Shown here one piece after another: positions 149 to 29,435 of a stretch of 46,586 nucleotides of DNA. Within the stretch, counting starts at the first letter, position 1. Each line of letters starts with the position of its first letter. Both the position numbers and the translations under genes were made by a program. The notes beneath the pieces were generated by a model. It saw only the letters and a program-made list of their open reading frames with translations, was not told where the DNA came from and did no database searches. Source of the DNA: a virus. Where the stretch lies: IMG/VR virus record IMGVR_UViG_3300018494_000026. One strand, 5' to 3'.

Positions 149-165
149 GAAAGGAATGATAGGTT

Positions 166-1041
166 ATGGCTATCAAGGAAATCAAGCGGGAATGGAGTCC
201 CTGTCAGCTTGACTATGTAAAGACCTTCCTGCTGCATAGTGAAGCGGATGTGAAGGACTTGCCGAAGTGCTGTATTGGCAGCAAGGCAACGGTGAGTGAA
301 ACGGACAATGAGTATTTCTGCACTGCTGACGGCTGGAAGCTGGGTAGTGAGTTGGGTGGTGGTCAGACCGTCATCCTGGAGGAGACGGAGATGATCACAG
401 TGGATGTTACGCCCGGTATAAGTGGCGCATATCTGCTGGACAAGCCCTTGGCAGCTCCACTTGTGGACGGCGCAACCTATGAAATCGTTTGGGGCGGTGA
501 GAAGTACACCAGTAAGACCGCAGACGCTACGGCTCTCGGAGGTGTGGGAGTTACCACGTACCTGTTAGGTAGAAGCCCTAATGAGGAAAATATGCCTTCC
601 CCCGGCCCGGATTGTCCGTTCATGCTGCTGATCTTCCCCGATGGTGTAGAAGACGCTGGAGTGATGCTTTACGGTCAGATAGATTCCACTGTTATCCCCG
701 ATCTGCCCACCATCTCCATCGTGGAGAAGGCCGGAACGGAAAGCGCAGGGGGCGGGGGTGGCTTCGTTGTCAAGGCAACCATCGTCGGAATGGACAGTAC
801 TGGCACGAATGCTGAACTGGCAGTAGACAAGACGTTTGTCGAAACGATGGAAGCAATTCAAGCCGGAAGGTATGTAGTCTGTCAACTTGATACTGACGGA
901 ACAATTAACCTTTTGCCTGCAATCTCCTACGAACCCGATGCAGCTATTGTATTCATGATTTATTCTGGTGTGGCAACCGTCATGGTGATTATGCAGGCAG
1001 ACGGATCTGCCTCGATGCAAATTCAGGCACCGGAACAGTAA
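166..1041 (+). CDS. Hypothetical protein, 291 aa, with Gly-rich linkers; possibly virion-associated
   Basis: ORF track. The ATG is preceded by AAAGGA. It follows the BppU_N-type ORF directly, and its N-terminus (MAIKEIK) resembles that of the fibre gene at 18596 (MAIKSVD). I recognise no family. Confidence 0.6.
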   Translation: MAIKEIKREWSPCQLDYVKTFLLHSEADVKDLPKCCIGSKATVSETDNEYFCTADGWKLGSELGGGQTVILEETEMITVDVTPGISGAYLLDKPLAAPLVDGATYEIVWGGEKYTSKTADATALGGVGVTTYLLGRSPNEENMPSPGPDCPFMLLIFPDGVEDAGVMLYGQIDSTVIPDLPTISIVEKAGTESAGGGGGFVVKATIVGMDSTGTNAELAVDKTFVETMEAIQAGRYVVCQLDTDGTINLLPAISYEPDAAIVFMIYSGVATVMVIMQADGSASMQIQAPEQ

Positions 1042-5217: not shown

Positions 5218-5302
5218 TATATCCGTCCGGGGATGACGTTAAAAGCCCTCCAATCACGAGATGCGACCTCGTAAAAAGCGTAACGAAAGGATTTGAAAAA
5301 GC

Positions 5303-5953
5303 ATGAGTATTATCGAGATTTTGCAGCAGATTTTCTCCGCAACGGAGGAACAGACCAACTCTTTCTCTGATGCGCTGAAGAAGAACGGCATTTTCACCAC
5401 AAGTCATGAAAACATGGATGTTCGCTATCCAAAGCTGAAAAGCGAGTATGACTCGCTGAACAGCCAGTATGGCGAGGCGAACAAGCTGATTGAGGACATG
5501 AAGAAGTCCACCAAGGGCCAGGAAGCCCTTCAAGGCAAGATTACCGCATATGAAGGTCAGATTCAGCAGCTCCAGGCAGAGCTTCAGCAGGAGAAGATCA
5601 ACGCGGCAATCAAGGTTGGTCTGCTGTCTGAAAAGGCAAAGGATGTGGATTATCTGTCCTTCAAACTGAATGAAAAGCTGAAGGCAGATGGTGAAACCCT
5701 GTCGCTGGATGACAACGGCAATATCAAGGGCTGGGATACCAAACTGGAAGGCTTGAAGACTCAGTTCCCCAATCAGTTTGAATCTGCTGGTGACAACACT
5801 GATGGCTACCAGGTGTACAAGCCGAACACTCTGCGCAAGCCCGATGGTGACCAGACGATCACGAAGGAAGCCTTCAATAAGATGACTTATCAGGAGAAGG
5901 TTGACCTGTACGCAAAGAACCCGACGCTGTATAAGCAGCTTCGTGGCAACTAA
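5303..5953 (+). CDS. Scaffolding protein (GP20-like, coiled coil)
   Basis: The sequence is helical and rich in Q, E and K (QGKITAYEGQIQQLQAELQQEKINAAIK). It lies directly upstream of the capsid gene. Confidence 0.75.
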   Translation: MSIIEILQQIFSATEEQTNSFSDALKKNGIFTTSHENMDVRYPKLKSEYDSLNSQYGEANKLIEDMKKSTKGQEALQGKITAYEGQIQQLQAELQQEKINAAIKVGLLSEKAKDVDYLSFKLNEKLKADGETLSLDDNGNIKGWDTKLEGLKTQFPNQFESAGDNTDGYQVYKPNTLRKPDGDQTITKEAFNKMTYQEKVDLYAKNPTLYKQLRGN

Positions 5954-8025: not shown

Positions 8026-8366
8026 GAGGCATTTGTGGAAACATGAAGGCCATCATTCAGGTCAGCACCACCACTCGCAATGCCATTGGCGAACAGGTGC
8101 AGGAATGGGCAGACGTGCAGACCTTGCGCGGCTGGCTTGACCTTGCGGCTGGCAAGTCGAGCTATTCCAGCTTCCATGCCAAGATTCAGGAGTCAACCCA
8201 CATCTTCATTGGCGATTATGTACCGCTGGACAGTCGAATCACGGCTGAGAACAGCCGTATGGTTGTCAATGGGAAGGTGTATGACATCATGCTCCTGGAC
8301 AATCCAATGGAACTGGAAGAAGGCTCACAGTGGGAAATCTACCTGAAATACACCGGGGGGCGGTAA
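8022..8366 (+). CDS. Head closure / head-tail adaptor protein
   Basis: This is the frame of track ORF 7935..8366. ATG 8022 overlaps the upstream stop (ATGA), and ATG 8043 (MKAIIQV) is an alternative start. Size and position match SPP1 gp16-type proteins. Confidence 0.6.
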   Translation: MRGICGNMKAIIQVSTTTRNAIGEQVQEWADVQTLRGWLDLAAGKSSYSSFHAKIQESTHIFIGDYVPLDSRITAENSRMVVNGKVYDIMLLDNPMELEEGSQWEIYLKYTGGR

Positions 8367-17155: not shown

Positions 17156-18573
17156 CGTACCGGGTGTATTGTGACAGCATGCTTCTGTATCACAGCAAAC
17201 TTGAAAACCTTGTGTTGTTCAATCCGTCTGTGGAATTGGAGGTCAACAAAACCGGGTCGTTCACATTCACAGTGCCTTCAAACCATCCGTATTATGGCCT
17301 GATTCACAAGATGAAAAGCATCATCACGGTATATCAGGACGATTACCTGCTGTTCCGTGGAAGGGTGCTTGACGATGAAATAGGCTGGCATAATGAGAAG
17401 GCTGTCACCTGTGAAGGGGAGATGGCCTTTTTGCTTGACAGTATCATGCGACCCTATGACTTTTCCGGCAGTATCCCGGAATACTTGGCTGTGCTGCTGG
17501 ACAGTCACAACAGTCAAGTGGATGCGGATAAGCGGTTTACGCTGGGCAAGGTGACGGTTGCAGACGCAAATGACTACATCGTGCGGTCAAACATCGACTA
17601 CACCGACACATGGACTGAAATGCAGGACAAGCTGGTCAAACTGCTTGGCGGGTATCTGCAAATCAGGCATGAAGGCGATGCGCATTACATTGACTATTTG
17701 CAAGACTTCACACTGCTTGCTCCGCAAAAAATCGAATTCGGCAAGAATCTGCTGGACTTGAAACGCATTCGGAAGGGCGCGGACATTGCAACAGCGGTCA
17801 TCCCACTGGGCGCGAAACTGAAGGATGCAGACGGTAAAGACACGGACGAACGCCTGACCATTGCAGAGGTCAATGCTGGGCTTGACTACATTGTGGATGA
17901 AGATGCGAAAGCACAATTCGGCCTGATTGTCAAGACGGTCATATTTGACGATGTGACCGATGCAAACAATCTGCTGACGAAAGGCAAAGCATACCTTGCA
18001 GGACTTGTCAAGTTGCCTGAAACCATTGAGTTGACGGCGGCTGATATGGCAACGCTGGGGCAGGACATTACGTCCTTTCACATTGGCACAAAGGTTCAAG
18101 TGAAAAGCAATCCCCACGGCATTGACCAACTTTTCACGGTCAGCAAGCTATCCATCAAATTGCTTGACCCGGCATCGAATCACTTGACGCTGGGCGGGGT
18201 GCTGGATACCTTCACGGCATCAACAAGCAAGATCACAGCCATCACCGGAAAGGATGGCAAGAACGGAGAGGATGCTGTCACCTTGCGGATTGATTCCAGC
18301 AGGGGGACTGTGTTCAAGAACAGCGAAGTTTCGACTGTTCTGAATGTTGTCATTTTCAAGGGAGGCAAAACGATCACGGATGCGGCCGCTATGAGGGCTG
18401 AGTTCGGGAGCAACGCCTATCTTGAATGGCAATGGCAGCGTATGGGGGAAGCGACCTTCGGGACGATATTGACAACGGACAGCAGAATATCGAACGAAGG
18501 ATTTGCTTTGTCGCTGGCACCGAGCGACGTAGACACAAAGGTTGTTTTCAAATGCCAACTTGTCTCGGAATGA
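17152..18573 (+). CDS. Tail-associated (Tal-like) minor structural protein, copy 2 (473 aa)
   Basis: Track ORF 17134..18573. ATG 17152 overlaps the Dit2 stop (ATGA) and lies 7 nt after GGAGG. It is paralogous to 15093..16514 (EVNKTGSFTFTV, FRGRVLDDE, CEGEMAFLLDSIMRPY). Confidence 0.75.
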   Translation: MTYRVYCDSMLLYHSKLENLVLFNPSVELEVNKTGSFTFTVPSNHPYYGLIHKMKSIITVYQDDYLLFRGRVLDDEIGWHNEKAVTCEGEMAFLLDSIMRPYDFSGSIPEYLAVLLDSHNSQVDADKRFTLGKVTVADANDYIVRSNIDYTDTWTEMQDKLVKLLGGYLQIRHEGDAHYIDYLQDFTLLAPQKIEFGKNLLDLKRIRKGADIATAVIPLGAKLKDADGKDTDERLTIAEVNAGLDYIVDEDAKAQFGLIVKTVIFDDVTDANNLLTKGKAYLAGLVKLPETIELTAADMATLGQDITSFHIGTKVQVKSNPHGIDQLFTVSKLSIKLLDPASNHLTLGGVLDTFTASTSKITAITGKDGKNGEDAVTLRIDSSRGTVFKNSEVSTVLNVVIFKGGKTITDAAAMRAEFGSNAYLEWQWQRMGEATFGTILTTDSRISNEGFALSLAPSDVDTKVVFKCQLVSE

Positions 18574-18595
18574 TAATGAAGAAAGGAGAGTTTCT

Positions 18596-20143: not shown

Positions 20144-20183
20144 GGAATGATAGGCACTCTGACCCTTGAAAGGGGGTCAGTAC
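20144..20183 (+). promoter_or_regulatory. Intergenic cassette copy: GGAATGATAGG + CACTCTGACCC + SD-sequestering hairpin
   Basis: ggaatgatagg is at 20144-20154 and cactctgaccc at 20155-20165. The stem ctgaccc (20159-65) / gggtcag (20074+100, i.e. 20174-80) includes the GGGGG Shine-Dalgarno of ATG 20184. Confidence 0.6.
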
Positions 20184-22247
20184 ATGGCAGCATCAGGAAC
20201 GATACAGGAAGCAATTCGGACGGGCTATCGCTTGCAGATTGCATGGGCGGTAGACAGCCAGTCGGTGGCAAATAACACATCCACGGTAACGGCGAAGGTT
20301 CAGCTTGTGTCCACGGGGTCGAGCTACACCATCAACTCCAGCGCAAGCAAATCCGGCAGCCTGACCATCAATGGGACGAAATACAGTTTCACGTTTACAG
20401 CGGCATTGAGTGGTAGTCAGACGAAGGAAATCTTCAAAAAGACGGTCACGATTTCCCATGCTGCGGATGGCACGAAGACCTGTGCGTTCTCCGCAACGGC
20501 TGGCATCAATGTCACGCTATCCGGGACGTACTACGGCAATGTCACGGCCTCTGGCAACGGTGTATTCAACACCATTGCAAGGGCAAGCACCATTTCCAGT
20601 GTGACTTCCTCTGTGGCTGTCAATGGTACGAATACGGTCACGGTGAATATCACAAGGGCATCTTCCAGCTTCACGCACACGGTGGTTTTCTCGTTTGGTA
20701 CATACTCAAAGTCCACAACGGGAGTCGGTACGTCAACCAGCTACGCAATCCCGACCTCCTGGCTGAATGCAATCCCGTCAGCAACCAGCGGCACAGCGAA
20801 GGTTACTGTCACGACCTATTCCGGCTCAACGAAGATAGGTTCTGCGGTCAGCAAGAATTTCACTCTGACTGTGCCTTCAACCGTTGTTCCGTCCTTTTCC
20901 TCCGTTGCTGTGGCTGATACGACCACCTATCAGGCAACATTCGGGAACATGGTGCAGAACAAGTCAAAGGCGAAGTTCACCATCACGGCTGTTGGCAACC
21001 TGGGGTCTACCATCACGGCATACAAGACAGTCTTTGAGGGCAAGACCTACACAGGAGCAACACCTACCACTTCCACGATCACAAAGAGTGGTACGGCATC
21101 TGCTGTCATTACGATTACAGATAGTCGTGGCAGGACTGCGACATTCACAAAAACCTGGACGGTTGTTGCCTACTCCGCTCCGAAGATTGCCAATTTCACG
21201 GTTGCCCGTTGTTTGGCTGATGGAACGGAGAACTACGAAGGGACATTTGTCAAGGTTGCTTTCAACTACACGATTGCATCCGTCAACAGTAAGAATGCAA
21301 ACACCTACGTCATTGAATATAAGCCCCAAAGCGGCACGACATGGACGGCCTTGACAAATGGCACAGGATATGCAGTCAACACGTCCATCATCAGTACGAA
21401 TGGGGCTTTTGACGTGGACACAAGCTATGACTTGCGGCTATCCATCACGGACAGCTTCACCACGATTCGCGGCCAGACGGAGATTCCCACGGCCTTCACG
21501 TTGCTTGACTTCAATGCTTCCGGGCGTGGCGTAGCGTTCGGAAAGGTGTCTGAGTTGACAGAAGGCGTGGAATTTGCTTTGCCGACACAATTCAGCCATG
21601 CAGAAACGCCTTCTTCCCCGATATACCTTCAGAGCGGTCAGGACTTGAATGACCTTCTTGAGCCGGGCTATTATGCCATTCCAAATACGGCGGTCAGCAC
21701 CACTTTACTGAACAAACCTTGGTCAGCAAATGCAACTGGCGGTGTGTATGTGTTTGTCGAAGGTGACGGCATGGGCAAGGTTCAGATTGCTCACAGGCTG
21801 TCAAAGGATGACGGGGAAATCTACGAACGCAGCTATTATCAAAGCGCATGGGGCAACTGGTACAGGGTGCATGGTGGCAGAGGGAAAGTGCTTTGGTCTG
21901 GCGGGTATTACATGACGGCTACCCACACCATTGCCCTGTCTGAGAAGGTCAGTCAGCAGCCAAACGGGATCGTGCTTGTGTTCAGTCGCTATTCTGGTGG
22001 AGCAGCGCAGGATTATCATTGGAATGAGTTCTTTGTTTCCAAAGAGTGGGTCAGGCGGCATCCCGGCACAGGCCATTCGTTCATGATGACGAATGACGGC
22101 CTTTTCTCGCTCATGGCAACTAAATATCTGTACATTCACGATGATAAAATAGGCGGCAACGATGTGAACGGTCAATCCGGCACAGGAACAAGCGGGATTA
22201 TATACAACAATGCAGGGTTCGTCCTGCGATATGTCATCGGAGTATAA
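20184..22247 (+). CDS. Receptor-binding / host-specificity protein (DUF859-like N-terminal region, pyocin-knob-like C-terminus)
   Basis: Track ORF 20166 has a TTG start, so I prefer ATG 20184. The N-terminal pattern (SQSVANNTSTVTAKVQLVS...SGSLTINGTKYSF...ISHAADGTKTCAFSA...NTIARAS) resembles siphovirus DUF859. The C-terminus (GQDLNDLLEPGYYAIPN...LLNKPW...GGVYVFV...YERSYYQSAWGNWYRV) resembles a knob domain. Confidence 0.7.
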   Translation: MAASGTIQEAIRTGYRLQIAWAVDSQSVANNTSTVTAKVQLVSTGSSYTINSSASKSGSLTINGTKYSFTFTAALSGSQTKEIFKKTVTISHAADGTKTCAFSATAGINVTLSGTYYGNVTASGNGVFNTIARASTISSVTSSVAVNGTNTVTVNITRASSSFTHTVVFSFGTYSKSTTGVGTSTSYAIPTSWLNAIPSATSGTAKVTVTTYSGSTKIGSAVSKNFTLTVPSTVVPSFSSVAVADTTTYQATFGNMVQNKSKAKFTITAVGNLGSTITAYKTVFEGKTYTGATPTTSTITKSGTASAVITITDSRGRTATFTKTWTVVAYSAPKIANFTVARCLADGTENYEGTFVKVAFNYTIASVNSKNANTYVIEYKPQSGTTWTALTNGTGYAVNTSIISTNGAFDVDTSYDLRLSITDSFTTIRGQTEIPTAFTLLDFNASGRGVAFGKVSELTEGVEFALPTQFSHAETPSSPIYLQSGQDLNDLLEPGYYAIPNTAVSTTLLNKPWSANATGGVYVFVEGDGMGKVQIAHRLSKDDGEIYERSYYQSAWGNWYRVHGGRGKVLWSGGYYMTATHTIALSEKVSQQPNGIVLVFSRYSGGAAQDYHWNEFFVSKEWVRRHPGTGHSFMMTNDGLFSLMATKYLYIHDDKIGGNDVNGQSGTGTSGIIYNNAGFVLRYVIGV

Positions 22248-24394: not shown

Positions 24395-24886
24395 TTATGT
24401 GTTTTCCTGCTGGCGGAGGCATTGCTCCCGCAGAAAGGCGTTGTTGGCCTTCAACAGGTCAATCTGTTCTATATATTCGTTTCTGATCGTCTGCATGTCG
24501 TTGCGATGCAGTTCGGCAAGGGTCTGGAACTTCGCAAGCAGCGCGTTCCTTTCCTCAATCAATTCCTGGCGTTGCTTTTCCAGTTCCTCAATGTGGGCAA
24601 ATTCAGCATCCAACTTTTTCTGGCAAGGAAACTCGGCAGTGTGGCCTCCCATCAGCGCATGAAGGACACTGCGTATGGTGGAGTAACGAGGATCGTCTTC
24701 ACCTTTCCTGATTCGGTTGATTGTACCAACCGGGATACCGCTGTTGTCAGCCAACTCCTGATTCGTCCAGTCGAGAAGTGCCTGGCGTTTCTTCCACCAG
24801 TTCATAAGGTCAGGGAAGGACAGAGCCATCAGGTTCGGTACGCAGTCTTTTCCGAGACGTTCACAACCAATGCAACGATCAAACAT
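24395..24886 (-). CDS. HTH (XRE-like) protein with an N-terminal Cys cluster and a C-terminal coiled coil, co-oriented with the integrase
   Basis: CIGCERLGKDC is followed by an HTH (WTNQELADNSGIPVGTINRIRKGE) and a coiled coil (EELEKQRQELIEERNALLAKFQ). It lies 18 nt upstream of int. Confidence 0.75.
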   Translation of the reverse strand: MFDRCIGCERLGKDCVPNLMALSFPDLMNWWKKRQALLDWTNQELADNSGIPVGTINRIRKGEDDPRYSTIRSVLHALMGGHTAEFPCQKKLDAEFAHIEELEKQRQELIEERNALLAKFQTLAELHRNDMQTIRNEYIEQIDLLKANNAFLREQCLRQQENT

Positions 24887-25005
24887 ATAAATTTCCTCTC
24901 ACTATTACTTATGTTATCTAAAAATGATTCTATTCTTGCTACAAATGAAAATTATTCGCATATCTGTTTATTGTGCTAAAGTGTTGACAGCGATATGATG
25001 AAGAC

Positions 25006-25031
25006 GGGTCAGAGATGACCTATCATTCCGG
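25006..25031 (-). promoter_or_regulatory. Intergenic cassette copy on the minus strand (CCGGAATGATAGG...CTCTGACCC)
   Basis: The reverse complement of 25006-25031 reads ccggaatgataggtcatctctgaccc. The 11-mer ggaatgatagg is exact. Confidence 0.55.
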
Positions 25032-25101
25032 GACGGCAGGGGCGGTCGGGTGGTGCTGCATCGCTCCTGCTATTCTTTCAAACTTGTGGTAACACTTACC
25101 A

Positions 25102-25131
25102 TTGATTCTTGAAGCTGTCATACATTACAAT
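25102..25131 (+). promoter_or_regulatory. Candidate rightward promoter facing the 3' end of the repressor gene
   Basis: TTGATT (25102-07), an 18-nt spacer, then TACAAT (25126-31). Confidence 0.4.
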
Positions 25132-25188
25132 ATTTTCAGGCAATTGGAACATATGTTTGCCACAAAGATTGAAGGGAGTACGCAAGAC

Positions 25189-25344
25189 ATGACTAACGTT
25201 GACAAACTGATTACTTACATTCTCACTCTGACCCCTGAACAGGCCGACAAGGTTATTCGTCAGCTTCCACTATTGACTGAATTACTCGCAGAATCATTGC
25301 AGCCTTGTCTTCAGGAACAGTCTTTGCGAACTCAATCAGCTTAA
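25189..25344 (+). CDS. Possible 51-aa ORF on a transcript antisense to the repressor 3' end
   Basis: ATG 25189 lies 9 nt after GAAGGGAG. The last 30 codons or so are antisense to the repressor C-terminus, so coding status is uncertain. The unit has a promoter and an intrinsic terminator. Confidence 0.3.
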   Translation: MTNVDKLITYILTLTPEQADKVIRQLPLLTELLAESLQPCLQEQSLRTQSA

Positions 25345-25612
25345 TTTGACTCTCAGTCAGCCCGCCGTCAATGGCGGGTTTTTTTGTTGCCTCCACATCA
25401 AACCCCATGAGCCACTCAACAGATACATTGAAGTATTGGGCGATCATGATGATGGTTGGTTGCTTAGGAGATCGTACCCCAGTACGCCATGCACTTAGCG
25501 TTTGCTTTGAAACGTGTAACTCCTTTGCGAGTTCTGTATCGTTGCGGCGGCTTTTGTTGCACAGTGCGTTGAAACGTTCGTTGAAAGAAGATACCATTGC
25601 GCTGTCCTCCAC
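25253..25612 (-). CDS. CI-like repressor (XRE-family HTH)
   Basis: HTH is DTELAKELHVSKQTLSAWRTGVRSPKQPTIIMIAQYFNVSVEWLMG. The C-terminal helix pattern (LTESQIKLIEFAKTVPEDKAAMILRVI) is common in Firmicutes phage repressors. The start is GTG 25612 (9 nt after GGAGGTG) or ATG 25597. It is divergent from the cro-like gene. Confidence 0.85.
   Translation of the reverse strand: MEDSAMVSSFNERFNALCNKSRRNDTELAKELHVSKQTLSAWRTGVRSPKQPTIIMIAQYFNVSVEWLMGFDVEATKKPAIDGGLTESQIKLIEFAKTVPEDKAAMILRVIQSIVEADE
25361..25385 (+). terminator. Intrinsic terminator (+ orientation) embedded in the repressor coding sequence
   Basis: cccgcc / ggcggg forms a perfect 6-bp GC stem with a 6-nt loop, followed by seven T. 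It lies 17 nt after the stop of the + ORF at 25344. On the minus strand it has no U-tract. Confidence 0.6.
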
Positions 25613-26298: not shown

Positions 26299-26514
26299 GT
26301 GAGAAAGATGAGATTGCCGTCGTACACTGATGACCCTGCGCGAGACTGGGACTCCTACTGTGCTTGCCAGGATGCGCTGAATGACATGTATCCACGGTGC
26401 ATTGAGTGTGACGAAACCATTGACGAGTACGCCTTTGACCTTGGGGATGGCCCGATGTGCGAGGAGTGCATGATTAGGCTGTACAGGCACCCGGTTGAGG
26501 ATTGGATGGAGTGA
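26299..26514 (+). CDS. Cys-rich small protein (zinc-ribbon-like)
   Basis: Frame of track ORF 26293..26514. GTG 26299 lies 8 nt after GGAGGG, and ATG 26308 is an alternative start. Motifs are CIECDE...CEEC. Confidence 0.6.
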   Translation: MRKMRLPSYTDDPARDWDSYCACQDALNDMYPRCIECDETIDEYAFDLGDGPMCEECMIRLYRHPVEDWME

Positions 26515-26518
26515 TGAT

Positions 26519-27313
26519 ATGAAAGATTTGAGCCTATTCAGTGGCATTGGCGCGTTTGAAAAGGCGTTGGACAACCTTGGTGTTCCGTATGACCTTGTAG
26601 GTTATTGCGAAATTGACAAGTATGCGTCCAGGTCTTATGCGGCGATCCACGGTGTTGATGAAAGCATGAACCTGGGTGACATCACGAAGGTTGATGCAGC
26701 GAAGCTACCTAAGGGCATTGATTTGGTTACATACGGTTTCCCGTGCCAGGACATCAGCATCGCCGGGAAACAGAAGGGCTTGATTGACGAAAACGGCAAG
26801 CAAACCAGAAGCGGTCTGTTCTTTGAAGCTCTGAGAATCATTGTAGAAACCCATCCCCGTGTTGCCATAGCCGAGAATGTGAAGAACCTCACAGGCAAGC
26901 GGTTTGCGGAACAGTTCAAGATTGTACTGGATTCGCTGGAAGCGGCTGGCTACAACAACTACTGGAAAGTGCTGAATTTGAAAGACTTCGGCATCCCTCA
27001 GAACCGAGAGAGGGTGTTCATCGTCAGCATCCGCAAGGACGTTGATAATGGAACGTTCAATTTCCCAAAGGGTTTCCCGCTGGAGCTACGCTTGAAGGAC
27101 ATGCTGGACGATCGGGTGGACGAACGGTACTACATTGAAGGGAAATATGAAAAAGTAACAAAAGTGAACGAATGCTATTCGATGCTTGATGGAGGAATCA
27201 TTGGTAAGATGCACGATATTTCAAGACGCGCTTACAGTGCAGATTATGTTGCTCCGTCATTGCATACTTGCGGGGGTGGTAACTTGGAACCGAAAGTAAT
27301 CATTAATAAGTAA
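26519..27313 (+). CDS. DNA (cytosine-5) methyltransferase, N-terminal subunit (motifs I-VIII plus a TRD-like segment)
   Basis: ATG 26519 (MKDLSLFSGIGAFE is motif I). GFPCQDIS is motif IV, ENV is motif VI and QNRERVF is motif VIII. The ORF ends with RRAYSADYVAPSLHTCGGG and has no motifs IX or X. Confidence 0.85.
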   Translation: MKDLSLFSGIGAFEKALDNLGVPYDLVGYCEIDKYASRSYAAIHGVDESMNLGDITKVDAAKLPKGIDLVTYGFPCQDISIAGKQKGLIDENGKQTRSGLFFEALRIIVETHPRVAIAENVKNLTGKRFAEQFKIVLDSLEAAGYNNYWKVLNLKDFGIPQNRERVFIVSIRKDVDNGTFNFPKGFPLELRLKDMLDDRVDERYYIEGKYEKVTKVNECYSMLDGGIIGKMHDISRRAYSADYVAPSLHTCGGGNLEPKVIINK

Positions 27314-27318
27314 CCTAA

Positions 27319-27371
27319 CCGGAATGATAGGCGTTTTTGATCCCAATACAAACGGGAAGGGATTGAAAACG
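27319..27371 (+). promoter_or_regulatory. Intergenic cassette copy between the two methyltransferase halves
   Basis: ccggaatgatagg is at 27319-27331. It is followed by a 13-bp stem (27332-44 / 27359-71, two G-U pairs) that ends 1 nt before GTG 27373. Confidence 0.6.
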
Positions 27372-27372
27372 A

Positions 27373-27963
27373 GTGCCAGAGATACAGAGAATTGACATTC
27401 CGCAGCTTGTAAGAGTAAGAAAGTACGAAGTTGACTGTGAAGGGCTGAAGGAATTGTTGAGAACCCACAAGCGGATTTCCGGAAAGAGCATCAGGGCATT
27501 AGCGAAAGTGTTGGGAGTGCCAACCACAATGGTTGAGCATTGGTTCAGGATGGATTCGTATTTTGCAATTCCAGATGCTGAACTGTGGGAAAACATAAAG
27601 ACTGAATTAGGGATAACGTCAACAGAATTTGATGAAACCATAATAACCTTTGAAGAAAGGCCTGGCGTTTACGAGAAGTCCGAACGGTGCTATTTCGCGG
27701 ATGGTATTGCACCAACGCTGACAAGTGCCTCGGCAGGAAAAGAAAAAATCATAGTGGAGGGAGAAACGATGCAAGATGTACGAATCCGCAAGCTGACACC
27801 GAAGGAATGCTTTCGTCTGATGGGCTTTGACGATGCGGATTATGAGAAGGCGGCAGCTGTGAACAGCAACACCCAACTTTACAAACAGGCTGGCAACTCT
27901 ATCGGAGTTCCTGTTGTTGAACACATCATCGCTGCCCTGCTTGATTGTGGCGCGTTGACCTGA
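27373..27963 (+). CDS. DNA (cytosine-5) methyltransferase, C-terminal subunit (HTH-like region, second TRD-like segment, motifs IX-X)
   Basis: RKLTPKECFRLMGF is motif IX and YKQAGNSIGVPVV is motif X. They are preceded by ERCYFADGIAPTLTSASAG. It starts at GTG in a different frame from the N-terminal half. Confidence 0.8.
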   Translation: MPEIQRIDIPQLVRVRKYEVDCEGLKELLRTHKRISGKSIRALAKVLGVPTTMVEHWFRMDSYFAIPDAELWENIKTELGITSTEFDETIITFEERPGVYEKSERCYFADGIAPTLTSASAGKEKIIVEGETMQDVRIRKLTPKECFRLMGFDDADYEKAAAVNSNTQLYKQAGNSIGVPVVEHIIAALLDCGALT

Positions 27964-27964
27964 C

Positions 27965-28016
27965 CCGGAATGACGGTAAATCACTCTGACCCCACTTAAT
28001 AGAAGAAAGTAGGGTC
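27965..28016 (+). promoter_or_regulatory. Intergenic cassette copy (variant GGAATGACGG + CACTCTGACCCC)
   Basis: ccggaatgacgg is at 27965-76 and cactctgacccc at 27982-93. gaccc pairs with gggtc at 28012-16, just before ATG 28021. Confidence 0.5.
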
Positions 28017-28020
28017 GACC

Positions 28021-28545
28021 ATGAAAGAAGGTGAGAAATTGTTTCAACTCAAAGACCTGACAGGGCAACGGTTTGGCAGATTGACGGTCATTGAACAGGC
28101 CGGGCGGACAAAAAGCCGTTCCGTATTGTGGCTCTGTCACTGTGATTGCGGCAATACCACAACGGTTATTGGGTCTCACTTGATAAGGGGCAACACGAAA
28201 TCCTGCGGTTGCTTCATGAATGAAGCGCGAGTGATTAACAACACTACGCACGGTCTGTCTGAAACGAGGCTGTACAGAACATGGCGAGCAATGAAGGCAA
28301 GATGTACTATTCCTTCGCAAAAAGGCTATGAGAACTACGGCGGCAGAGGAATCAAGGTTTGTGATGAATGGATGCACAGCTTTGAAGCATTCGCTGAATG
28401 GGCGTATGCGAACGGATACCGTGATGACATTCCAAGCAACGATTGCACGATTGACCGTATTGACAACGATGGGAACTATGAACCTTCAAATTGTCGATGG
28501 GTAGACCGGAAGGTACAGGCTAATAATCGCCGCAAACGGGCGTAA
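28021..28545 (+). CDS. Zinc-ribbon / AP2-like (IDRIDN) DNA-binding protein, possibly related to homing endonucleases
   Basis: The pattern is GRLTVI...WLCHCDCGN...SCGC, then [11 protein letters not shown]...[12 protein letters not shown]...[23 protein letters not shown]. This family is widespread in phages. No catalytic HNH motif is evident. Confidence 0.6.
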
Positions 28546-28554
28546 CTCTCTATC

Positions 28555-28602
28555 CCGGAATGATAGTGGTCGTTTCTCGCCCCAATAAACGAAGGGGAGA
28601 AA
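28555..28602 (+). promoter_or_regulatory. Intergenic cassette copy (CCGGAATGATAGt) with a weak CCCC/GGGG hairpin
   Basis: ccggaatgatag is at 28555-66. cgcccc (28079+500, i.e. 28579-83 region) pairs with ggggag (28594-99), which is the SD for ATG 28608. Confidence 0.5.
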
Positions 28603-28607
28603 TGGGC

Positions 28608-29435
28608 ATGAAAGAGTACAAGAGTTTTTTCAAAACTGTTGGCGGAAATGAAGGGGATAAATGCAAGTACAGGACGCGCTTAGATTGTTATGGATGTGGA
28701 TGCGGACACGATTGCTCCTACTGCTACGCCAAGTCGCTGCTGAGTTTCAGAGGCTTGTGGGATGCAAAAGAACCGTCTGTGGCGGACATTGACAAGATCG
28801 AACGGCGGATTGCCAAGTTAGAGCCTGGGACAATCGTCCGGCTGGGTGGCATGACGGACTGCTTTCAGCCCATCGAAGAACAAATGGGGGTGACGCTGGA
28901 AACCATTCGGCTGCTGAACATGTACAACATCGGCTATCTGATTGTCACCAAGTCTGACCTGATTTGTGAATACATGAACATTCTGCGCAAGGATTTGGCT
29001 CACATTCAGATCAGCGTGACATGGATTCCGGTGGAGAAGGCTGTCAGCACAGAGCGCAGGATCAAGGCCATTGAGAAACTGTATGATGCAGGGTTCGATG
29101 TGGCTGTCAGGCTTTCGCCATATCTTCCCCAGTTCGTGGACTTTGACAGGCTGAACAGTATCCGGTGCAACAAGATCATCGTTGAGTTCCTGCGGGTGAA
29201 CCACTGGATCAAGAAGTGGCTTCCACTGGATTACTCATCATGGACGGTGCATCACGCCGGATATGACCATCTACCGTTGGAGAAGAAGATTGAAGCCCTG
29301 GCACGGATTACTGGATTTGATGAGGTGTCTGTCTGTGAGGATGTGTCAGAACATTACGACTATTGGCGTGAGTGTGTGAACCATAACAAAGAAGATTGTT
29401 GCAATCTTAAAGTAAACGGAGGAATGAAGAAATGA
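28608..29435 (+). CDS. Radical SAM protein (SplB / COG1533-like fold pattern)
   Basis: Frame of track ORF 28560..29435, starting at ATG 28608. The CX3CX2C cluster is CGHDCSYC. The downstream pattern (RLGGMTDCFQPIEE...YLIVTKSDLI...ISVTW...RLSPYLP) resembles spore-photoproduct-lyase-like radical SAM enzymes. Confidence 0.7.
   Translation: MKEYKSFFKTVGGNEGDKCKYRTRLDCYGCGCGHDCSYCYAKSLLSFRGLWDAKEPSVADIDKIERRIAKLEPGTIVRLGGMTDCFQPIEEQMGVTLETIRLLNMYNIGYLIVTKSDLICEYMNILRKDLAHIQISVTWIPVEKAVSTERRIKAIEKLYDAGFDVAVRLSPYLPQFVDFDRLNSIRCNKIIVEFLRVNHWIKKWLPLDYSSWTVHHAGYDHLPLEKKIEALARITGFDEVSVCEDVSEHYDYWRECVNHNKEDCCNLKVNGGMKK

Follow-up and report, generated by a model that had tools for sequence, protein, structure and literature searches.

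A predicted antisense RNA and a family of complementary start-codon cassettes in a temperate siphophage genome

What accompanies the short sequence that recurs between the genes of IMG/VR virus record IMGVR_UViG_3300018494_000026? The window, by which we mean the whole stretch of 46,586 nucleotides (nt) that was analysed, is a circular temperate siphophage genome with a G+C content of about 49%. A preliminary description of it had reported four exact copies of an 11-mer, GGAATGATAGG, and our motif search recovered the same number at the same places: 153-163, 20144-20154 and 27321-27331 on the plus strand, and 25019-25029 on the minus strand. With up to one mismatch there are 5 matches against 0.75 expected, a count reached in 0 of 100 shuffles. 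Two near copies in that description are likewise present, one with a single mismatch (GGAATGATAGT, 28557-28567, plus strand) and one variant (GGAATGACGG, 27967-27976, plus strand). It had also counted degenerate GGAATGA junctions; those at 29421 and 31894 are ordinary Shine-Dalgarno (SD) sequences with stop/start overlaps and fall outside the family, and at most the one at 18567 belongs to it as a weak member, its membership being uncertain. The plus-strand copies adjoin start codons, four of them with a hairpin that buries the SD and one without a hairpin, 2 nt from its ATG. By Pfam assignment the genes that follow encode a DUF859 receptor-binding protein, the second half of a C5-methyltransferase, an AP2-like protein and a radical-SAM protein; open reading frame (ORF) 166-1041 also follows a copy. 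The minus-strand copy had been taken for one more cassette. This did not hold, and the locus, which we call the master locus, instead reads as a plus-strand RNA gene in the lysogeny region.

About 30 related phage contigs and prophages were collected by one pattern scan, three protein-anchored scans of IMG/VR and one genome scan. The prophages sit in one Oscillospiraceae metagenome-assembled genome (MAG) and one Clostridia MAG from buffalo rectum; the INPHARED phage collection gave a single match, the unannotated human gut sequence MT835521, and no cultured relative. The relatives carry 3-6 copies of the motif per genome, against 0-2 for a reversed control pattern, upstream of tape-measure, Dit, DUF859 receptor-binding, holin, methyltransferase and radical-SAM genes. 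Their holin genes are preceded by the hairpin-less arrangement motif-N1-3-ATG, and the cassette of the receptor-binding gene, at 20144 in the window, is kept in more than 15 of them. Equivalent junctions, to which the preliminary description had pointed, were checked for conservation, and because the motif is present there in relatives, at tail, holin, methyltransferase and radical-SAM genes, we regard the element as conserved. A general host ribosome-binding site (RBS) or an element of the repetitive extragenic palindromic (REP) kind was rejected, the motif in the 2.1-2.5-Mb host MAGs being confined to the prophage contigs and a few chance coding matches. Two further groups of phages carry different sequences at like sites. 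In type B relatives (G009-G013, comprising L215, L221, L222, L224, L227 and L216-L223), which are without the GGAATGATAG system described here, the 8-mer AGTGCCAC precedes the ATG of a holin-like gene, and that of a second gene, by 2-3 nt; at the radical-SAM gene it lies 5' of a flush hairpin. Type C relatives (G019-G023, L388-L395) have ACAAAAGATA(A/C)C...GGTTATC/GGTATCT-ATG upstream of both the Dit and the radical-SAM genes.

What is the structure of a plus-strand copy? In our folds, each cassette is modelled as a single-stranded motif of 10-11 nt, GGAAUGAUAG(G), directly 5' of a hairpin whose 5' arm is (C)UCUGACCC; the 3' arm is predicted to hold the real SD and to end flush at the start codon (Table 1). 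The longer consensus of the preliminary description, motif-N(3-8)-CTCTGACCC, is confirmed, as are its hairpins after the motif, which carry a G-rich SD in the 3' arm and fold at -12.2 to -18.4 kcal/mol. In the window and in about 45 copies from relatives, the hairpin nearly fills the gap between the 10-mer and the start codon; the unpaired bases typically number 0-3 (occasionally up to 10) next to the motif and 0-4 next to the start codon. The spacer from motif to arm varies from 3 to 12 nt. The 10-mer is fixed while the arms drift with compensation (GACCCC/GGGGTC, GACCTC/GAGGTC, GACCAC/GTGGTC, GATCCC/GGGATT). Because the 3' arms misalign, MAFFT/RNAalifold returned no consensus structure for the cassettes, and the support for the hairpin therefore comes from per-sequence folds and the visible compensations. 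In the hairpin-less copies, namely that of ORF 166-1041 in the window and those of holin genes in relatives, the ATG follows the motif by 1-3 nt and the motif, preceded by GAAA, is the sole SD-like sequence. Neither the flush fit of the hairpin nor this form with its ATG 2-3 nt behind the motif had been noted in the preliminary description. A scan called neither a sigma-70-type promoter nor a terminator at cassettes 20144, 27321, 27967 and 28557, and together with the variable spacing and the compensatory hairpin changes this bears out the suggestion that the element works at the level of RNA and translation rather than as a promoter.

Table 1. Position and make-up of the master locus, the cassettes and associated features in the window
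Feature	Position	Strand	Make-up	Fold (kcal/mol)	z
Predicted antisense RNA (master locus)	25006..~25082	+	5' hairpin GGGUCA-GAGA-UGACCU 25006-25021; anti-motif CCUAUCAUUCC 25019-25029; long hairpin; tail		
Long hairpin of master RNA	25036-25044/25062-25070	+	conserved loop GGGUGGUGCUGC		
U/C-rich tail of master RNA	25071-25079	+			
Predicted promoter of master RNA	24971..24999	+	-35 TTGTGC 24971-24976; 17-nt spacer; -10 TATGAT 24994-24999; inferred start G25006		
Cassette of DUF859 receptor-binding gene	20144..20186	+	motif 20144-20154; hairpin 20159-20180 (CUGACCCUU/GGGGGUCAG, SD in 3' arm); ATG 20184	-14.0	-2.3
Cassette in 59-nt gap of split C5-methyltransferase	27321..27375	+	motif 27321-27331; hairpin 27332-27371; GTG 27373	-15.6	-3.7
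Cassette of AP2-like gene	27967..28023	+	motif variant GGAATGACGG 27967-27976; hairpin 27988-28016; ATG 28021	-12.2	-1.1
Cassette of radical-SAM gene	28557..28610	+	motif GGAATGATAGT 28557-28567; hairpin 28566-28609; ATG 28608	-18.4	-3.07
Hairpin-less copy	153..168	+	motif 153-163, the ribosome-binding region of ORF 166-1041; ATG 2 nt downstream		
Candidate weak or degenerate copy	18567..18576	+	GGAATGATAA, 9/10 match; ordinary SD; no hairpin; ATG 18596		
Promoter-like site TTAGCA-17-AATAAT	24951..24979	-	for Zn-ribbon/HTH_3 gene 24886-24395 (Pfam)		

Each relative has one inverted copy of the motif, in the lysogeny region, and it is the best conserved of all copies. This master block comprises about 24 nearly invariant nt (motif, spacer and UCUGACCC), with neither a 3' arm nor a start codon. 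Exactly 6 nt before its GGGTCAG or AGGTCAG stands TAnnnT in 30 of 30 distinct master loci, and in 18 of the first 25 of these TGn stands ahead of the TAnnnT. The sequence around this promoter has diverged and cannot be aligned between subgroups; conservation begins exactly at the inferred +1. Judged from promoter sequence alone, the master RNA would have its own promoter, of the extended -10 type. The RNA would open with GGGUCAGAGAUGACCUAUCAUUCC, some 24 nt in length, and continue into a long hairpin whose 11-nt loop is invariant; in the predicted fold the AUCAUUCC part of the anti-motif is single-stranded. The plus strand folds at -35.2 kcal/mol (z -3.85), a value that none of 200 shuffles equalled, whereas the minus strand folds at -17.5 kcal/mol (z -0.79). 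In an alignment of 24 sequences the 5' hairpin is GGGUCA-GNRA-UGRCCU; its loop is GAGA or GAAA, of GNRA form on the plus strand only, and the hairpin itself is specific to that strand because it needs G·U pairs. In the same alignment the arms of the long hairpin change with compensation around the invariant loop: of its 8 pairs, 7 show double compensatory changes; 95% of cells are paired, a share that drops to about 42% when the arms are slid; and G·U occupies 13 cells, A·C only 2. Because of the promoter signature, the strand asymmetry in folding and the conserved structure that depends on G·U pairs, we conclude that the locus is a plus-strand RNA gene or RNA leader, as far as its sequence allows it to be read. 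Rfam 15 gave no match at the locus, either at the gathering score, applied to the whole window, or at E-values up to 10 in 24880-25200 on both strands.

The first 24 or so nt of the master RNA are the reverse complement of the motif together with the 5' arm of the cassette hairpin. When the first 30 nt were scanned for duplexes against both strands of the window, the four best non-self matches were the four hairpin cassettes, at -38 to -44 (-39.5 for cassette 20144) against a mean of -18.4 (sd 4.1); the weak candidate at 18567 ranks about ninth, at -29.9. The targets as a whole, the hairpin-less copy included, lie 2-25 kb from the master locus, in other transcription units. Identity between master and cassettes is restricted to motif and 5' arm, and UCUGACCC does not vary among masters, where a 3' partner for it is missing. 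The spacer of 3-12 nt should be tolerable for a duplex with an internal loop, and should not be for a rigid protein site. Cofolding predicts that at the cassettes of the receptor-binding gene, the second methyltransferase half and the AP2-like gene the RNA pairs through its first 24-27 nt with motif and arm, so that the hairpin opens and the SD is freed, with a ddG of -11 to -17 (-16.9 for cassette 20144). At ORF 166-1041 the predicted pairing would cover the SD and the AUG.

The two partners also change together from genome to genome. Four motif classes were found, GGAATGATAG, GGAATGACAG, GGGATGATAG and GGAAGATAG, and within a genome the class of the master is also that of all or most of its cassettes. 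Likewise, the variant AGGUCAG at the 5' end of the master is accompanied by the arm CUGACCU. Over the first 10 nt, 43 of 50 cassettes match their own master, against 41% for foreign masters, and all five related genomes that have no motif cassettes also have no master.

We propose that the master locus encodes an antisense RNA that acts in trans on a family of target cassettes resembling toehold switches. This is the most likely reading, and we give it a probability of about one half. It is built on four observations, namely the promoter signature, the strand-specific structure, the complementarity and the covariation of master and cassettes within genomes, and from these we infer that the RNA is produced, that it pairs in trans and in which direction it acts. 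The exposed AUCAUUCC of the RNA would use the motif as a toehold for pairing, after which the RNA's 5' end would invade the 5' arm of the hairpin, so that the SD is freed and translation is activated, in the anti-antisense manner of a toehold switch. At the hairpin-less copies, where the motif serves as RBS, pairing would instead mask the ribosome-binding site. Modelling makes activation at the hairpin cassettes slightly the better guess over uniform repression, thermodynamics being the sole basis for the direction of regulation. An antisense RNA would explain the inverted orientation of the master, its promoter, the conservation that begins at +1, the invariant arm without a partner, the variable spacer and the covariation. 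More tentatively, and with the odds against it, we suggest a multi-target regulon in which translation of tail, lysis and DNA-modification genes is gated, by way of portable cassettes, by one RNA of about 75 nt encoded in the lysogeny region, with the pair of seed and toehold re-coded between close phages into at least four specificities.

Several observations weigh against the antisense RNA. Sister lineages carry other cassette flavours, AGTGCCAC and ACAAAAGATAMC, at the same junctions, and a search for an antisense partner of these type B and type C cassettes found none; the hairpin architecture can therefore exist without such an RNA, as a cis element or with some other factor. At 28557 the cofolded RNA pairs only with the motif and an upstream CCC, and the hairpin is predicted to stay closed. 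Where cassettes differ from their own master at positions 1-10, 7 differences are compatible with wobble pairing and 4-6 are not, which is no clear wobble bias, and some cassettes (27967 in the window, and L060_x) have a C·A mismatch to their own master. Covariation by itself would fit a shared DNA-binding protein or gene conversion equally well, and cannot separate these from RNA pairing, because master and cassettes are the same double-stranded sequence, inverted. Finally, the terminator scan called none at the master, whose hairpin and U/C-rich tail are not a textbook terminator. Because no textbook terminator stands at its 3' side, the master element could be the 5' leader of a small-ORF mRNA (25189-25344).

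Could the cassettes work without any partner? Their geometry is fixed, with the motif either 1-3 nt from the ATG or followed by a flush hairpin and then the ATG, and hairpins acting in cis as attenuators might throttle low-copy proteins (tape-measure, Dit and receptor-binding proteins, accessory enzymes), the exposed, GGA-containing motif serving as an upstream SD or ribosome standby site that the hairpin, once folded, places beside the AUG. The copies would then be alike by duplication or recombination, and the resemblance of the master would have no regulatory meaning. Split ribosome-binding sites are known at T4 genes 38 and 25, and this account agrees both with the motif being the only SD-like sequence of the hairpin-less copies and with the flavour-specific cassettes of the sister lineages, for which no partner was found. 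However, we consider it rather unlikely: it does not account for a 24-nt block that is identical at the master across phages with unalignable flanks, for the inverted orientation of that block or for conservation beginning at the start of transcription, it leaves the genome-wise covariation unexplained, and the motif is phage-specific and not a general host form of RBS. A phage protein reading DNA, which if shared by all sites predicts the covariation just as well, is also unlikely. The copy at +1 to +24 of the master would be its operator and the intergenic copies silencing roadblocks, for which the stoperators of cluster A mycobacteriophages are a precedent; these are DNA sites of a monomeric repressor (L5 gp71), of a fixed 13 bp and more than 20 per genome (PMC9283540, PMC6550527). 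As with stoperators, the motif is short and asymmetric and recurs, in the same direction as transcription, in the narrow gaps between genes close to start and stop codons; one copy adjoins a promoter, and the variants that define lineages differ between related phages as immunity specificities do. Stoperators, operator sites included, keep a single orientation relative to transcription (PMC9283540), whereas the promoter-proximal copy here is inverted relative to the transcript that starts there, opposite to all the others. Unlike stoperators, moreover, there are only 4-6 copies, they are bipartite, with conserved halves 3-12 variable bases apart in the cassettes, and they are coupled to an RNA hairpin; a DNA site does not account for the fact that the second half-site invariably coincides with the 5' arm of a hairpin that buries the SD and abuts the start codon, and the strand-specific structure of the master transcript is left unexplained. 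Nor does the adjacent repressor track the motif class, the neighbouring Zn-ribbon/HTH repressor-like protein being 83% identical across classes and less than 30% identical within one.

The reader might instead be a phage protein that binds RNA, as the preliminary description had suggested, and that on binding the single-stranded motif would melt or stabilise the hairpin in the manner of Com at the mom gene of phage Mu. Com is a zinc-finger protein that acts on one gene, and its binding is thought to open the mom hairpin. The architecture is alike, with the recognition sequence single-stranded and just 5' of a hairpin that hides SD and start codon, and the 10-mer is far more conserved than the hairpin sequence. 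Among the few small ORFs scanned, however, no candidate protein was found, so that the suggestion gained no support. The master locus is left unexplained, and one RNA-binding protein cannot read both master and cassettes because the master transcript carries the complement and not the motif; an antisense RNA fits better, and we hold such a protein to be very doubtful. Internal promoters are a most improbable explanation. The TGATAGGC of the motif resembles the extended -10 of the master (TGaTAGGCT), which in about half of the relatives is literally AATGATAGGCT, and a start some 7 nt downstream would land in the 5' arm, so that the transcript escapes the hairpin; T4 late promoters at homing-endonuclease genes follow the same logic of escape. 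However, the final T of the hexamer is missing in most cassettes (TAGGCA/G/C, TAGGTC), the variants CAGG and ACGG have no T at -12, a start at the hairpin-less copies, 2 nt from the ATG, would fall within the gene, and no promoter was called at any cassette. An equally slight chance goes to a recombination linker, in which the shared sequence would exist to promote the exchange of modules. Relative to its nearest relative, L079, the window has a 577-bp insertion (28030-28606) consisting of the AP2-like gene and the second cassette, bounded by cassettes and by a duplicated ATGAARGA at 28021 and 28608; cassette 27967 is 95.5% identical to the L079 cassette before the radical-SAM gene. The gene behind the same cassette differs among L044, L060 and L062, and the flanks of the master are mosaic. 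The PeSL elements of T4-type phages, a sigma-70 early promoter plus a stem-loop, offer a likeness in that repeated intergenic stem-loop cassettes flank variable genes and coincide with mosaic boundaries. The analogy drawn in the preliminary description nevertheless breaks down at the defining promoter, of which none was called at 20144, 27321, 27967 and 28557; the hairpin here sequesters an RBS, and the phage is a temperate siphophage. Moreover, recombination would have only a short homology of 10-24 nt to work with, members of the AP2 family elsewhere show no association with the motif, and an invariant 10-mer beside arms that drift with compensation points to a sequence-specific function rather than mere homology. 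The part of the earlier claim that places cassettes at mosaic boundaries stands, with the AP2 insertion and the gene swaps as examples; recombination at them is probably a by-product of the shared sequence.

How would such an antisense RNA compare with known regulators? The c4 RNA of phages P1 and P7 blocks icd-ant expression (PMC8198154). Like c4 (from P1/P7 immI) and the CI RNA of P4, the predicted RNA would be a small phage RNA from an immunity or lysogeny region, with short seeds for RBS regions or repeated targets. Seed and target change together between the heteroimmune phages P1 and P7, and P4 CI RNA has repeated seqA/seqC targets. However, c4 and P4 CI RNA act on their own operon or transcript and repress it, whereas here 4-6 cassettes are dispersed among late and accessory genes, and the target is a toehold plus an arm of an SD-burying hairpin, which predicts activation. 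The master RNA has no homology to c4 in sequence or structure, and no Rfam match; its host, unlike those of c4 and P4 CI RNA, is of a Gram-positive Clostridia/Oscillospiraceae lineage. Closest in predicted working are the activating anti-antisense small RNAs (sRNAs) such as DsrA and RprA at rpoS and GlmZ at glmS (PMC2267818), and synthetic toehold switches, in which an RNA acting in trans opens an inhibitory hairpin by pairing with its 5' arm, so that the SD is released. Shared with these are the single-stranded toehold just 5' of the stem and the seed at the 5' end of the RNA. Natural anti-antisense sRNAs have one or a few unrelated targets, whereas here a family of nearly identical cassettes lies in one phage genome and the seed diversifies between lineages. 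Also unlike them, the same RNA would repress some of its targets, since some copies have no hairpin.

The setting of the master locus bears on when the RNA might be made. It lies between the Zn-ribbon/HTH-integrase genes and a gene for a CI-like repressor (25253-25612, minus strand), and the -35 of its promoter overlaps that of the promoter-like site on the minus strand (Table 1). That site is downstream of the block in the direction of the Zn-ribbon/HTH_3 gene, whose mRNA therefore need not contain the block. The master RNA could be expressed in lysogens, and by analogy with c4 a purely repressive, immunity-like role would be a further possibility; both are conceivable because the RNA lies left of the CI-like repressor gene. 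From its position it would also be perfectly antisense to any cI read-through into the HTH-integrase genes. Phages with the same RNA carry the integrase-adjacent gene (24395-24886, minus strand), which encodes a Zn-ribbon (CxxC...C) and HTH_3, in no fewer than four versions that differ strongly. Downstream of the master RNA, at 25189-25385 on the plus strand, are a promoter-like TTGATT-18-TACAAT, a small ORF conserved in position and, within the 3'-terminal part of the CI-like gene, a strong terminator, and the master RNA may be the leader of this convergent unit.

A number of smaller observations concern the master RNA itself. In about half of the relatives (L046, L050, L052, L056, L061, L062, L067, L070, L324, L320 and others) its -10 region reads AATGATAGGCT, almost the motif itself; together with the anti-motif (+13 to +21) it makes up an inverted repeat of 9 bp, which might serve as an operator or in feedback, or be left over from the origin of the system. 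Of the RNA loop in its sense orientation, GCAGCACCACC, the window has 6 near copies (at most one mismatch) against 0.95 expected, including those at 8062, 10516, 19410 and 22416 on the plus strand and 42269 on the minus strand; all lie within coding sequence, in differing frames. In the relatives G003 and G005, GCAGCACCAC stands directly upstream of the tape-measure cassette and could pair with the RNA loop. A coding frame through GCAGCACCACC...GGAATGATAGG was rejected because it is not kept across indels, and so was a 25-codon ORF in the plus-strand RNA (ATG 25015), the ATG being lost in L001, L065, L069 and L071 and the frame shifted in L044 and L053. We likewise discarded a K-turn or box C/D-like fold (UGAU...CUGA with GG/CC), in which the C-stem has only 2 bp and for which 27321, 28557 and 153 have no CUGA; a snoRNA, for which the weak Rfam matches are on the wrong strand and far below threshold; a self-cleaving ribozyme or known riboswitch, for which there is no Rfam match; and the attP of a serine integrase, the compensating arms of the long hairpin, its invariant loop and the strand-specific G·U pairs being the behaviour of an RNA and not of a recombinase site.

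By Pfam the C5-methyltransferase is split, with positions 1-238 of the profile in ORF 26495-27313 and 252-322 in ORF 27373-27963; the split falls between motif VIII and the target-recognition domain on one side and motifs IX-X on the other, with the cassette in the gap. Since the relative L001 (4001-5810) has the same split and the same cassette, the split is not a sequencing error. Translational bypass or frameshifting across the gap was rejected, there being a stop 7 nt before the motif and no matching take-off and landing codons. The AP2-like family has more than 580 loci in viral contigs, with identities of no more than 56%, a very wide spread that would be expected of a mobile gene of homing type; an element tied to this AP2/HNH-like gene was rejected, no motif being associated with it at 80 loci of the family. 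Elsewhere in the window, an Rfam match above the gathering score, to GP20-b RNA (RF03003), lies at 5224-5282 on the plus strand (45.8 bits, E 5e-07), just upstream of ORF 5303-5953.

Finally, the analysis holds a lesson of method, in that a repeat on the opposite strand can be the regulator and not another copy. The RNA may be of use in phage annotation as a new, unannotated RNA family, and the four seed classes might supply naturally orthogonal pairs of trigger and switch for Clostridia. Should the predicted pairing take place, one antisense RNA and a portable target module would let the phage coordinate dispersed genes post-transcriptionally, a logic that synthetic biology arrived at independently in the toehold switch. 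The cassettes would then be plug-in control modules, brought along or adopted by newly acquired genes, and related phages that share a cell would not cross-talk. Such a system would account for the presence of the same short sequence at the mosaic junctions of this group of gut and rumen phages, and for the control that the phage would gain over newly inserted genes such as the AP2-like gene and the split half of the methyltransferase.

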